NCBI RefSeq assembly: GCF_009931435.1
Contig: NZ_CP043414.1
Length of the DNA stretch: 64,000 nt
Direction: 5' to 3' (one strand)
Source of the DNA: Escherichia coli
GTDB lineage: Bacteria; Pseudomonadota; Gammaproteobacteria; Enterobacterales; Enterobacteriaceae
The stretch's first letter is position 1. Each line of letters begins with the position of its first letter. The position numbers were made by a program. Shown here piece by piece: positions 1-6,000 of the stretch.

Positions 1-3000
1 AGAGTGCCTCAGCTGCGGCAGGCTTAAAAACAGCGGCTGCGTCGTCTGCCAGTGCAGCGTCAACAAGTGCCGGGCAGGCCTCAGCCAGTGCTAGCGCCGC
101 CGGAAAATCGGCAGAAAGCGCCGCATCGTCCGCTTCAACAGCCACAACGAAGGCTGGCGAAGCCACTGAACAGGCCAGCGCAGCAGCGAGGTCTGCTTCC
201 GCAGCGAAGACATCCGAGACGAACGCGAAAGCGTCGGAAACCAGCGCAGAATCCTCAAAAACGGCTGCCGCATCGTCCGCCAGTTCGGCGGCGTCATCGG
301 CATCATCTGCGTCTGCTTCAAAAGATGAGGCGACCAGACAGGCATCAGCAGCGAAAGGCAGCGCCACGACGGCATCCACGAAGGCGACAGAGGCAGCTGG
401 TAGTGCGACGGCGGCAGCACAGAGCAAAAGTACAGCAGAATCCGCGGCAACGCGCGCCGAGACAGCAGCAAAACGGGCAGAGGATATTGCATCCGCCGTG
501 GCGCTTGAGGATGCGAGCACGACGAAAAAGGGGATAGTACAGCTCAGCAGTGCGATCGACAGCACTTCCGAGTCACTGGCGGCAACGCCAAAAGCCGTTA
601 AGGCCGCGTATGACCTGGCTAACGGGAAATACACCGCACAGGATGCAACGACAGCACAGAAAGGGATAATCCAGCTAAGCAGCGCGACCAACAGCACGTC
701 TGAAACGCTGGCGGCAACGCCAAAGGCAGTAAAAGCAGCCAATGACAATGCTGAGAAACGTCTGCAGAAAGATCAGAACGGTGCGGATATCCCTGGCAAA
801 GACACCTTTACGAAAAATATTGGTGCCTGCCGTGCCTTCGGTGGGTCAGTAAGCACAACAACAGGAAACTGGACGACTGCACAGTTTATCGAGTGGCTGG
901 ATTCTCAGGGAGCATTTAACCATCCATACTGGATGTGCAAGGGTTCCTGGTCTTATGGCAATAATAAAATCATTACTGATACTGGCTGCGGTAATATTCA
1001 TCTCGCCGGAGCTGTCATTGAAGTAATGGGGATAAAGTCAGCGATGACGATCCGCATTACCACACCGACCACCTCCACTGGTGGTGGAACAACTAACGCC
1101 CAGTTTACCTATATTAATCACGGAACAGATTATTCACCTGGCTGGCGAAGGGACTATAACTCCAGAAATAAGCCAACGGCATCAGAGATCGGGGCGTTAC
1201 CGTCAGGTGGAACAGCAGTATCATCAGTTAATCTGTCTTCAAAAGGTCGGGTAACCGCGCTGACAGACAATACGCAGGGGGCAACAGGTCTTGAGTTATA
1301 CGAGGTGTATAACAACGGATATCCAACAGCGTATGGAAATATCATTCACCTGAAAGGGATGACAGCCGTTGGCGAAGGTGAGTTACTCATCGGCTGGAGT
1401 GGTACAAGCGGTGCTCATGCTCCGGCATTTATTCGTTCACGACGGGATACGACCGACGCAAACTGGTCGCCGTGGGCGCAGCTTTACACCTCGGCTCATC
1501 CTCCTGCAGAGTTTTATCCAGTCGGTGCACCAATCCCGTGGCCATCAGATACCGTTCCGTCTGGTTATGCCCTGATGCAGGGGCAGACTTTTGACAAATC
1601 TGCTTACCCGAAACTTGCAGCCGCTTATCCGTCAGGCGTGATCCCTGATATGCGTGGCTGGACGATTAAGGGCAAGCCCGCCAGTGATCGAGCCGTATTG
1701 TCTCAGGAACAGGACGGCATTAAATCACACACCCACAGCGCCAGCGTATCCAGTACGGATTTGGGGACGAAAACCACATCGTCGTTTGATTACGGCACTA
1801 AATCCACGAATAACACTGGTGCGCATACCCATAGTGTTAGCGGTACGGCTGCTTCAGCCGGTGCACATACCCATTCGATGACATTTGTTTCAGGTGGTTC
1901 CAGTGGTGCTCCGGGAAGTGGATCACCTGATTATTCTAAATACAGTGTTAACACTTCTTCTGCAGGCGCTCATACGCACTCTGTATCGGGTACTGCTGCA
2001 AGCGCAGGTGCACACGCACATACTGTCGGTATTGGTGCTCATACGCACTCCGTTGCGATTGGTTCACATGGACATACCATCACCGTTAACGCTGCTGGTA
2101 ACGCGGAAAACACCGTCAAAAACATCGCATTTAACTATATTGTGAGGCTTGCATAATGGCATTCAGAATGAGTGAACAACCACGGACCATAAAAATTTAT
2201 AATCTGCTGGCCGGAACTAATGAATTTATTGGTGAAGGTGACGCATATATTCCGCCTCATACAGGTCTGCCAGCAAACAGTACCGATATTGCACTGCCAG
2301 ATATTCCGGCAGGCTTCGTGGCTGTTTTCAACAGTGATGAGTCATCGTGGCATCTCGTTGAAGATCATCGGGGTAAAACGGTTTATGACGTGGCTTCCGG
2401 CGACGCGTTATTTATTTCTGAACTCGGTCCGTTACCGGAAAAGGTTACCTGGTTATCGCCGGGAGGGGAATATCAGAAGTGGAACGGCACAGCCTGGGTG
2501 AAGGATACGGAAGCAGAAAAACTGTTCCGGATCCGGGAGGCGGAAGAAACAAAAAACAGCCTGATGCAGGTAGCCAGTGAGCATATTGCGCCGCTTCAGG
2601 ATGCTGCAGATCTGGAAATTGCAACGGAGGAAGAAATCTCGTTGCTGGAAGCATGGAAAAAGTATCGGGTATTGCTGAACCGTGTTGATACGTCAACTGC
2701 ACAGGATATTGAATGGCCAGCACTGCCGTAGGGTAAAACATATAAATTCTATAATTAGATGTATCTTTCCATTTACGGCAAGGAAGGTGGCTTGGAAGAC
2801 GTAAAGCATCTCACACCGAGATTATTTTTTATATGTCAGGTGTCTGAAGTTTTGCTTTGGCTCTTAAAATGGTTTGCCGCGAGGTTTTGAATTCCCGGGC
2901 AATGGCACTTATACTTACACCTGACTTAATTCGTTCGAATACCACCTGTTTCTGTTCTTCATTTAACACAGGTGGTCGACCAAAACGTTTCCCTGCGCCC

Positions 3001-6000
3001 CGGGCTCTTACTATCCCGGAATGAGTGCGTTCAAGTAAAAGGTCTCGTTCAAATTCAGCGACTGCTGAAATTACTTGCATCATCATTTTTCCTGTTGGAC
3101 TGGTCAGGTCAATGCCCCCCAATGCTAAGCAATGCACTCTGATACCTGTTTCGGTCAGTTGTTCCACTGTTTTCCTGATATCCATTGCATTACAACCAAG
3201 GCGATCCAGTTTTGTCACAATCAATTGATCACCACATTTCAGGCGAGCAAGCAACCGGTTAAAACCAGGACGCTCACTGGTTGCTGCTGAGCCGCTAATG
3301 TGTTCTTCGATTATTTGCTGAGGTTTGATTTTAAAACCTGCACTTTCGATTTCCCGGCGTTGATTTTCGGTGGTCTGATCCAGCGTTGATATCCGACAGT
3401 AAGCAAAAATTTGAGACATAGTGAGACTCTATACGAAATTGGTGTTCATATCATAATGCATCTCAGAAAATAATTATGATTATTTTTGTGCATATTTGTA
3501 TGTACACGTTCGAAAATAAACGAATGCGTATGCAACCCCGTAATTTTGGTGAGACCCAAAATCGATTTTGTGAAAAATGGCTTTAACTCGGTTTGTTTTT
3601 CGAGTTCCGGGCGGACTCAAGGAAGAAGAATAGTGTTGCGTGTTATTTTAACCAGATTTCAAGTTGTTTGGTCGTGGAAAAGTGGAGCAAAATGTTGTTA
3701 AAGTGGAAAAATGATAAAAAAGTAAGTTTATTATATTACATTTTACCATTTAAATTTTGGTTGTCTTTAAGAACTGATATCGCTGTTTGTAATAATTCTT
3801 TGTTATCCAGCCATGATTTTTTCTTTATGTTTCCTTCAATGTAATCAAGCAATGTTCTGGTATTGATAGGTCTTCCCTGTTTTGCTACTTCCACTACAGC
3901 ATCCCCTAGGATAATTCTTACTTCAGGAAGCTGCGCAGGGAACCACTTTAGGGTGTCTTTTGATTTCATGAAGATATTCCTTAAAATATTATTGATTTTC
4001 ATTGCGATATTGTATGTCTGATTCAGGATATGTTGACTTATACATCGGTTTTGTCTGGGTTATTGGATATGCCAATCCCTAATTTTATTAGGGCATGACT
4101 AAAAATGCTGAATATGATAAGGAGAGATGTGATTATCAGTATGCTGTTCATATAGCCTCGAATTAGTAATGTGTTATATATGATATAGTTGACAATTTTT
4201 ATCTTGGGTGTTCTTAAAGTTCGTAGATAAACATTGTCGTTTCAGGTATACAGGAATGCTAACAGGTGGCAGCAAAAATCAGGCGGTTTATGGCGCAAGC
4301 TGAAGCGGCAACTGCAAACTATCTTATGCAGAGACTCTACACGGATTGGGTTTAAAAGTATACATAGATAACAGTTTTTATCTGAAAAAGAAAAATATCA
4401 AGGTGATTTAGCCTATATGCCTTTGATGCGGAGGAATGAATGTGATGGGAGTGATGTATCTGAATAGTTGAAAAACCGCAGACACGCCTTATGCAAGAAC
4501 GTGCTGCGGTTGGCTGGTAAATTTTTCGATAGTGTGAGTATTGAATGATTTCCAGCCGTTCTTGATTTTACGCATAAATCCATGAAAAAACTACTTATCT
4601 GTTGGGGAGTTTTTTTGGGGCATATATGGGACAGAAATAGGCCCCAGATAGACACTGAGATCGAACTTAGGATGCTTTTTAAAAAATGCAACTATCTGAA
4701 AAAACCTAGAAAACGCCAAGGAAACCACAGGATGGGAAAAAACACCTGTGAATCATGGATTTCCAGTTATATTCGCTCGGCGCAGCGTTAGTGTTTCATG
4801 AAATATTTTTTCCTGAATCATCAACGGCAATGGCGTTAATTCTGGCAATGGGAACCTACGGTGCAGGTTATGTGGCGCGTATTGTCGGAGCATTTATTTT
4901 CGGCAAAATGGGCGACAGAATCGGGCGTAAAAAAGTGCTCTTTATTACCATCACTATGATGGGGATCTGTACCACCTTAATTGGTGTGCTGCCGACCTAT
5001 GCACAAATTGGTGTGTTTGCGCCAATTTTGCTGGTGACGCTGCGTATTATTCAGGGGCTGGGGGCAGGCGCGGAAATTTCCGGTGCCGGTACGATGCTGG
5101 CGGAATATGCGCCAAAAGGTAAGCGCGGAATTATCTCCTCATTTGTTGCTATGGGGACTAACTGCGGAACCTTGAGCGCAACGGCAATCTGGGCCTTTAT
5201 GTTCTTCATTCTCAGTAAAGAGGAACTGTTGGCATGGGGATGGCGTATACCGTTCCTGGCGAGCGTTGTCGTGATGGTCTTTGCTATCTGGTTGCGTATG
5301 AATCTGAAAGAAAGCCCGGTCTTTGAGAAGGTTAACGACAGCAACCAACCGACAGCAAAACCTGCACCTGCTGGTAGCATGTTCCAGAGCAAATCCTTCT
5401 GGCTGGCAACAGGGCTGCGTTTTGGTCAGGCTGGTAACTCAGGTTTAATTCAGACTTTCCTTGCAGGCTATTTAGTGCAGACGTTATTGTTTAACAAAGC
5501 AATTCCAACAGATGCATTGATGATCAGTTCGATTCTCGGCTTTATGACCATTCCGTTCCTTGGTTGGTTATCCGATAAAATTGGTCGCCGGATCCCGTAT
5601 ATTATTATGAATACCTCTGCGATTGTGCTGGCGTGGCCAATGCTTTCTATCATCGTAGATAAAAGCTATGCCCCGAGCACCATTATGGTTGCACTGATTG
5701 TGATTCATAACTGTGCGGTGCTGGGATTATTTGCTCTGGAAAACATTACCATGGCAGAAATGTTCGGCTGTAAAAATCGCTTTACCCGGATGGCCATTTC
5801 TAAAGAAATTGGTGGTCTTATCGCTTCCGGTTTTGGTCCTATCCTGGCGGGTATTTTCTGCACCATGACGGAATCCTGGTATCCGATCGCCATTATGATC
5901 ATGGCATATTCAGTGATTGGTTTAATCTCTGCGCTGAAAATGCCAGAAGTGAAAGACCGTGATTTAAGTGCACTGGAAGATGCCGCGGAAGATCAACCGC

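Follow-up and report, generated by a model that had tools for sequence, protein, structure and literature searches.

The DNA invertases of the Din group, namely Gin of phages Mu and D108, Cin of P1, PinE of the e14 prophage and Hin, have the same small serine recombinase fold as PinQ of Escherichia coli, and pinQ also resembles their genes in its prophage location beside tail-fibre genes and in its historical name. Systems of this type are recognised by two inverted 26-bp crossover sites, each organised as 12+2+12 with TTMTCNNAAACC half-sites, which bound a segment beside the invertase gene. In Tn3-family transposons, the classic arrangement is tnpA-res-tnpR, that is, a transposase gene, a resolution site and a resolvase gene. 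In E. coli K-12, the closest counterparts are PinQ (b1545, in the Qin prophage), which is the same gene as the one studied here, and PinR (b1374, in Rac), with stf, tfa, pin, ydfK/ynaE and ynfT/ynaM as the common set of neighbours. The present analysis concerns the stf-pinQ locus at the left end of a 64-kb stretch of E. coli DNA (contig NZ_CP043414.1), hereafter called the window. PinQ is probably, by descent, a Tn3-family tnpR module that is defunct in cis and catalytically impaired, and not a tail-fibre invertase of the Din group, with any role being exerted in trans.

An earlier note on this DNA had taken the gene for an invertase of the Gin/Cin/Pin type, a premise that the comparison of protein sequences did not bear out. 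PinE, Gin and Cin share 77-83% of their residues with one another, but PinQ has an identity of only 36-38% with these three and of 31% with gamma-delta resolvase, versus 78-84% with TnpR. Gamma-delta resolvase is itself 38-39% identical to PinE, Gin and Cin, and is therefore at the same distance from these invertases as PinQ. The multiple alignment revealed three insertions that are common to PinQ and the TnpR clade and are absent from the Din invertases and from gamma-delta resolvase, and the recognition helix reads RQTILR in PinQ versus ST[LV]YK in the Din invertases and gamma-delta resolvase. At the DNA level, the enhancer stretch annotated in P1 within the 5' coding region is 80-82% conserved among cin, pinE and gin (82% between P1 and pinE, 81% between P1 and gin), and DNA comparison of pinQ with these three genes gave no counterpart. 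A strict Fis core motif occurs at gene position 71 in cin, gin and pinE, but pinQ does not have it. Given that only one of the two enhancer Fis sites was detected in the positive controls, this motif test is weak alone and was used only beside the homology test.

The closest relatives of PinQ are found next to transposases. The protein search returned thousands of relatives with 77-92% identity, many of them plasmid-borne and some named resolvase, and relatives were found on 1,858 plasmids. Among ten loci with 78-79% identity (L014-L023), seven carry the gene head to head with a 994-amino-acid (aa) DDE_Tnp_Tn3 transposase, 159 bp apart, and two more retain a truncated transposase remnant. The relatives with 84% identity on pECOED and pRM10386-2 also adjoin a Tn3 transposase of this 994-aa type, and a Photorhabdus copy is next to a remnant of it. 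The homology with the transposons of these two plasmids extends into the DNA, with 83% identity over 688 bp that cover pinQ, 39 bp downstream of it and 56 bp upstream. A tblastn search with TnpA gave no match in the window and none in related prophage loci; the terminal repeats had no dedicated search. The transposase of the relatives is named only "Tn3 family transposase" by the Prokaryotic Genome Annotation Pipeline (PGAP), and an attempt to obtain the name of the parent transposon from the literature (Tn5403?) was not conclusive. A scan of the genome contig collection gave seven loci only and added little. Among the relatives, Erwinia oleae has two divergent resolvase gene copies around one common intergenic region (L008, 1299-2618).

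The DNA upstream of pinQ retains the layout of a res site. Across the clade, site I is TGACCGAAA-N8-TTTCGTACA (26 bp), followed by a 14-bp spacer, site II is TGTCCGAAA-N14-TTTCGTACA (32 bp), followed by a TATAAT -10 hexamer, and site III, TGTACACCCATTTCGTACA, comes next before the start codon. Homologues of each of these elements are recognised by position in the window (Table 1), where the general promoter and terminator scan gave no convincing pinQ promoter or terminator. The half-sites of the site I and site II homologues score from -2.4 to 5.0 with a TnpR half-site matrix trained on twelve bona fide sites, versus 9.3-16.6 for the training half-sites, and the left half of site I has been lost. 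The relics found in phage 2H10 and at locus L028 are somewhat nearer to the consensus than those of the window. A second TnpR dimer site above chance was found neither in the window nor in the complete 2H10 genome.

The active site of PinQ also departs from that of the resolvases. The catalytic set, in Tn3 numbering, comprises Y6, R8, S10, D36, R68 and R71, for which PinQ has Y7, R9, S11, E39, R73 and, at position 76, a cysteine instead of the arginine. An arginine occupies this position in 112 of 120 close relatives, among which Cys76 is restricted to the prophage PinQ/PinR clusters and to P0009, an 84% relative that is also next to tfa; K-12 PinQ has Cys76 as well. R71 is among the six most critical residues of the resolvase, and Tn3 resolvase with the substitutions R71A or R71K shows no resolution in vivo and cleaves at approximately 0.0007-0.0009 of the parent (Olorunniji and Stark, PMC2794168). 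Judging from its sequence, PinQ would be at best a very weak recombinase.

PinQ resembles the TnpR clade of enterobacterial plasmids, which is associated with the 994-aa TnpA, and more distantly Tn3 and gamma-delta resolvase; with the plasmid clade it has in common the domain layout, the clade-specific insertions and the positions of the promoter and res subsites, and it differs from that clade in having no transposase and no second res, in its degenerate subsites, in the cysteine at the Arg71 equivalent and in its location in a phage accessory region. It is improbable that PinQ functions as a resolvase on the res-like site upstream of its gene, resolving dimers of the circular phage genome or of co-resident replicons that carry the related transposon. 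The tripartite res architecture is indeed kept by position, and alleles that retain the arginine and have better sites are found in the same prophage context (L029). In the window, however, the catalytic arginine is a cysteine, the catalytic core evolves under near-neutral constraint, the scores of the half-sites in sites I and II fall far short of functional values, and the left half of site I is missing. Resolution systems of the Tn3 type are nonetheless kept by integrated elements, such as Salmonella genomic island 1 (SGI1), which retains a resolvase and res, as is the case here (PMC12217951). The role of the SGI1 system is unclear, and in nature it is mostly found in the inactive state (PMC12217951). 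There an integron interrupts res beside an intact resolvase (PMC12217951); in the present locus, by contrast, it is drift of the sites and the change of a catalytic residue that set the module apart. A further homologue, 61% identical to PinQ, lies between the terminase and portal genes of Erwinia phage LS-2018a, far from the tail fibres. It keeps the catalytic arginine and is preceded by a clean array of three subsites with TGTACTAAA/TTAGTACA half-sites (L004, 7880-8000), the layout of three sites being the same and the half-site TGTACTAAA its own. Judged by sequence, this phage seems to carry a resolution module that is intact, and the homologue counts in favour of the reading as a working resolvase.

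Under the reading of PinQ as a resolvase derivative, an ancestor of the Rac/Qin-type lambdoid phages would have captured tnpR together with the proximal part of res, without the transposase or terminal repeats, and the captured module would have settled between tfa and the attachment site, within the accessory region. The adjacency of pinQ to stf-tfa would be incidental, and stf-tfa would never have been part of a switch. Given a native single cassette and an incidental position, nothing would be inverted in cis. The module would no longer be a working resolution system, with res subsites that are recognisable by position alone, the catalytic arginine changed to cysteine and no partner for res, either within the window or across the complete genome of a related phage. 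Its biological role would be exerted in trans, through DNA binding, through subunit interaction or through the reported stimulation of the e14 P segment. We infer that present-day PinQ is either a weak trans-acting recombinase or a derivative that binds DNA or poisons subunits.

The earlier note had described a single stf-tfa set beside pin, at a distance of about 100 bp and without an inverted duplicate of tfa, and this description is accurate. When tfa, the stf part and pin were compared with the whole window by tblastn, only self-matches were obtained, with no second tfa, stf C-terminus or pin (next-best E-values of 0.26 or worse), and the spacer between tfa and pin measures 97 bp. The search of the window for gix/pix-like 26-bp inverted sites, which the note had proposed, gave no pair on either side of the stf 3' end and tfa. 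Positions 1-6000 contain only short inverted repeats at chance level, and none of these encloses this region. Neither the gix consensus nor the published e14 pix core had any match in the window with up to three mismatches. A 12+2+12 position weight matrix was built from the real sites of D108 (gix), P1 (cix) and e14 (pix), which score 26-30 with it, versus 12.4 on average and at most 16.9 for shuffled sequence. The best score within positions 1-4800 is 5.4. There is no local inversion switch at stf-tfa-pinQ. The best Din-type match of the whole window, with a score of 18.0, is found at 61289-61314 (TTATTTTAATCCACGGTTTTTAAGCA) and is probably due to chance, since it is single and 58 kb away from pinQ. 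A 26-bp near-palindrome located just beyond the res-like relic was also considered as a Din-like crossover site and rejected, given its Din matrix score of -2.5 and its location outside the transposon-derived DNA. On the minus strand it reads TTTTCACAAAAT-CG-ATTTTGGGTCTC, and its core AAAATCGATTTT is kept in phage 2H10 and at loci L028 and L029.

The same layout with a single cassette is found in Rac and in the viable phages 2H10, mEp460 and Tritos, and the complete genome of 2H10 has no Din-type or TnpR-type site above chance. Unlike the Din systems, the PinQ locus has no 26-bp crossover sites, no invertible segment and no enhancer in the 5' coding region, and its recombinase has another recognition helix. 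The proposal of a degenerate switch of the Mu/P1/e14 type is thus not supported, given that PinQ is closest to TnpR, that the enhancer DNA is absent and that viable phages carry a single cassette. That PinQ is a relic Din invertase from such a switch, which would have lost the alternative stf/tfa cassette and the crossover sites, is hardly credible. The order of stf, tfa and a convergent pin does resemble what deletion of U' and Sv' would leave in P1, the name pin points the same way, and several phage records carry the annotation "DNA invertase". Against this stand the identity of 36-38% where family members share 77-83%, the lack of homology to an enhancer that is conserved at 80-82% among cin, pinE and gin, and the absence from the window of crossover sites and of tfa or stf remnants. 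Moreover, the nearest relatives are TnpR genes that adjoin a transposase, viable phages share the layout, and the homologue of the Erwinia phage is far from the tail fibres. Nothing indicates that a second tail-fibre cassette ever existed at this locus and, if PinQ is a captured transposon resolvase, none would have been lost.

Several points weigh against PinQ being an impaired resolvase, the most direct of which come from published work. Kirigo et al. (2025) reported that PinQ does not flip the DNA beside its own gene and inverts in trans the 1797-bp P segment of e14, which creates StfE2 and blocks T2 adsorption (PMC12529663). This is in line with the suggestion of the earlier note that pin acts elsewhere. 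In a BLAST comparison of Qin, Rac and CPS-53 with E. coli genomes, inversions were found in e14 only (PMC12529663). Overproduction of PinQ raised the inversion of the e14 P segment from approximately 30% to 88%, versus 49% with PinE, and deletion of pinQ lowered both the inversion and the survival of T2 infection (PMC12529663). The reported stimulation of the P segment suggests that PinQ is active despite Cys76, and the effect attributed to this residue is an extrapolation from Tn3 resolvase.

It is possible, though doubtful, that PinQ is, as in the published model, a fully active invertase in trans, which recognises the pix sites of e14 and flips the P segment, so that StfE2 blocks T2 adsorption. 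T2 survivors carry the 1797-bp inversion, the effect is lost when stfP, stfE or e14 is deleted, and T2 infection induces pinQ/pinR (PMC12529663). The protein of the window is one residue away from K-12 PinQ, which has Ala in place of Val158. The inner pix half-site TCTCCCAAAC is also alike in 8 of 10 positions to the half-site TGTCCGAAAC of the TnpR clade (manual count), and its score of 5.6 with the TnpR matrix matches the best obtained near pinQ. Nonetheless, pix half-sites score 0-5.6 where cognate sites score 9.3-16.6, the 64-kb window has no pix-like site, and PinQ lacks the Arg71 equivalent and the enhancer and has a recognition helix unlike that of the Din invertases. The 88% of inverted segments would exceed what is expected from an invertase alone and may be compatible with selection. 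The host used for the overproduction of PinQ was pinE+, and a pinE mutant was locked in one orientation despite having chromosomal pinQ and pinR (PMC12529663). The table of strains and plasmids lists neither a catalytic-serine mutant nor a PinQ plasmid in a pinE-deleted host, and a text search of the article gave no mention of the active site, of an inactive variant, of the Tn3-family relationship or of Cys76 (PMC12529663). For this reason, the evidence of Kirigo et al. for direct catalysis by PinQ is incomplete. A preprint proposes that PinR works by transcriptional repression, and in papers on plasmids a Tn3-family resolvase goes under the label "pinR". Both the gene and the fact that it is an orphan were known before; the literature search returned no paper that analyses the ancestry of PinQ, and the transposon ancestry and the change from arginine to cysteine appear to be unreported.

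The remaining points against an impaired resolvase come from the conservation of the gene and from the specificity of its sites. pinQ/pinR is found in 2,842 of 5,426 E. coli genomes (approximately half of the complete genomes), and 2,640 E. coli records have an intact pinQ with an identity of at least 99%. The ratio of nonsynonymous to synonymous polymorphism (pN/pS) within the Cys clade, obtained from the window and P0009, is 0.42 and is significantly below 1 (p ~0.001). Given that the open reading frame (ORF) is intact and conserved and that this ratio is below 1, PinQ is not simply decaying. This estimate of selection comes from one sequence pair, in a gene that recombines, as seen from its mosaic alleles. 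For the window versus 2H10 or K-12, the corresponding ratio for substitutions (dN/dS) is uninformative, with only 0-4 differences. In addition, the low scores of the sites could partly mean that the specificity has changed, as in the homologue of the Erwinia phage, and not that the sites have decayed. The pN/pS among transposon alleles is 0.07-0.10, and the constraint on PinQ, as judged from the sequences, is relaxed 4-6 fold but is not gone. By region, for the same pair, the value is 0.66 in the catalytic core, which is not distinguishable from neutral, 0.50 in the helix-turn-helix (HTH) domain and 0.11 in the E-helix and arm, the oligomerisation helix being the most strongly constrained part.

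We also consider, tentatively, that PinQ and PinR may be catalytically disabled TnpR proteins, domesticated by the phage, which act by DNA binding or in mixed complexes, the e14/T2 phenotype then not being due to direct catalysis. The dimer/tetramer interface, which includes the constrained E-helix, and the DNA-binding domain would have been kept, and efficient catalysis would not. When Tn3-family transposons with 84% identity come in, such a protein might repress or poison their transposase-resolvase module, or it might modulate PinE indirectly.

Mosaic alleles of pin are also found. P0004-P0008, in prophage context, have a transposon-type N-terminus and a PinQ-type C-terminus. At L029 (5001-5591), the plasmid transposon type extends over site III, half of site II and the N-terminal part, with its arginine in DRLGR, and gives way to the PinQ type at the C-terminus. 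Such alleles indicate that prophage pinQ and the Tn3-family tnpR carried by plasmids have undergone gene conversion.

Positions 1-4800 of the window correspond to the right end of a Qin-type lambdoid prophage, with the order stf, tfaQ, pinQ, ydfK, ynfT and truncated ydfJ (Table 1), a gene order that is common to this end of K-12 Qin and Rac. pinQ is convergent with tfaQ. The stf gene continues past the left edge of the window, and its C-terminus (1690-2100) has many tandem His-rich repeats of the GAHTHS type (Pfam Phage_fiber repeat), which are typical for this class of fibre. The end formed by pinQ, tfaQ and stf is 99.4% identical over 4.8 kb to NZ_CP062876, in which stf is annotated as a phage tail protein of 1007 aa and the region is preceded by a complete lambda-like late region (terminase, portal, tail, J and lom). 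The chromosomal site at ydfJ is the same as for K-12 Qin. In contrast with the full-length stf and the complete late region of this closest genome, the Qin prophage of K-12 is a truncated one, in which stfQ measures 963 bp and is fused next to nohA. The loss of the N-terminus of ydfJ marks the junction with the chromosome, which places pinQ approximately 1.3 kb from the right end of the prophage. Elsewhere, marR and marC of the closest complete genome are separated by an inserted RelE/ParE toxin-antitoxin pair (L001, 38140-38734), and this pair is absent at 17925-18137 of the window, where the arrangement is plain marR-marC.

Table 1. Features at the stf-pinQ locus (coordinates are those of the window).
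Feature	Position	Strand	Basis or remark
stf, side tail fibre gene, 3' 2.1 kb, with a single C-terminal receptor-binding region	1..2156	+	ORF; Pfam Phage_fiber_2, Collar, Phage_fiber
tfaQ, tail fibre assembly protein, sole copy in the window	2156..2731	+	Caudo_TAP, E 2.1e-42; tblastn
tfa-pin spacer, 97 bp, without crossover site	2732..2828		pin-proximal 39 bp (2790-2828) within the transposon-homologous block
Block homologous to tnpR and proximal res of Tn3-family transposons on pECOED and pRM10386-2	2790..3475	-	blastn, 83%
pinQ, small serine recombinase, 196 aa	2829..3419	-	PF00239, E 2.5e-36; HTH_7 PF02796, E 3.8e-11
pinQ codon 76, TGT (Cys), at the catalytic Arg71 position of Tn3/gamma-delta resolvase (motif DRLG-R)	3192..3194	-	alignment
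res site III homologue by position, ATGAACACCAATTTCGTATA (transposon form ATGTACACCCATTTCGTACA)	3430..3449	-	clade alignment
tnpR -10 hexamer homologue by position, TATGAT (TATAAT in transposons), putative	3450..3455	-	alignment; missed by promoter scan
res site II homologue by position, 32 bp, TGCACAAAA-N14-TTTCTGAGA	3461..3492	-	degenerate; half-sites 2.4 and 2.8
res site I homologue by position (crossover site), 26 bp, CATACGCAT-N8-TTTCGAACG	3507..3532	-	degenerate; half-sites -2.4 and 5.0
Near-palindrome, 26 bp, core AAAATCGATTTT	3551..3576		non-transposon DNA just beyond the res-like relic
ydfK (ynaE family), next gene in the prophage accessory region	3736..3969	-	ORF; related-genome annotation
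ynfT	~4038-4151 equivalent		annotation at the corresponding position in the closest genome
ydfJ without N-terminus, prophage-chromosome junction	4755..6038	+	comparison with related genomes

pinQ/pinR is routinely annotated as a DNA invertase and has lately been presented as the founding recombinase-activated anti-phage system. If PinQ is indeed a resolvase derivative without the key arginine, the missing cassette needs no explaining, the mechanism behind the published phenotype calls for a direct test, and annotation pipelines should not infer tail-fibre switching from the name "Pin". Its ancestry and the change from arginine to cysteine are a further, testable point that bears on the recent mechanistic claim. 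Together, the 83% DNA identity with plasmid tnpR and the mosaic alleles point to an active recombination bridge from prophages to the transposons of resistance plasmids.

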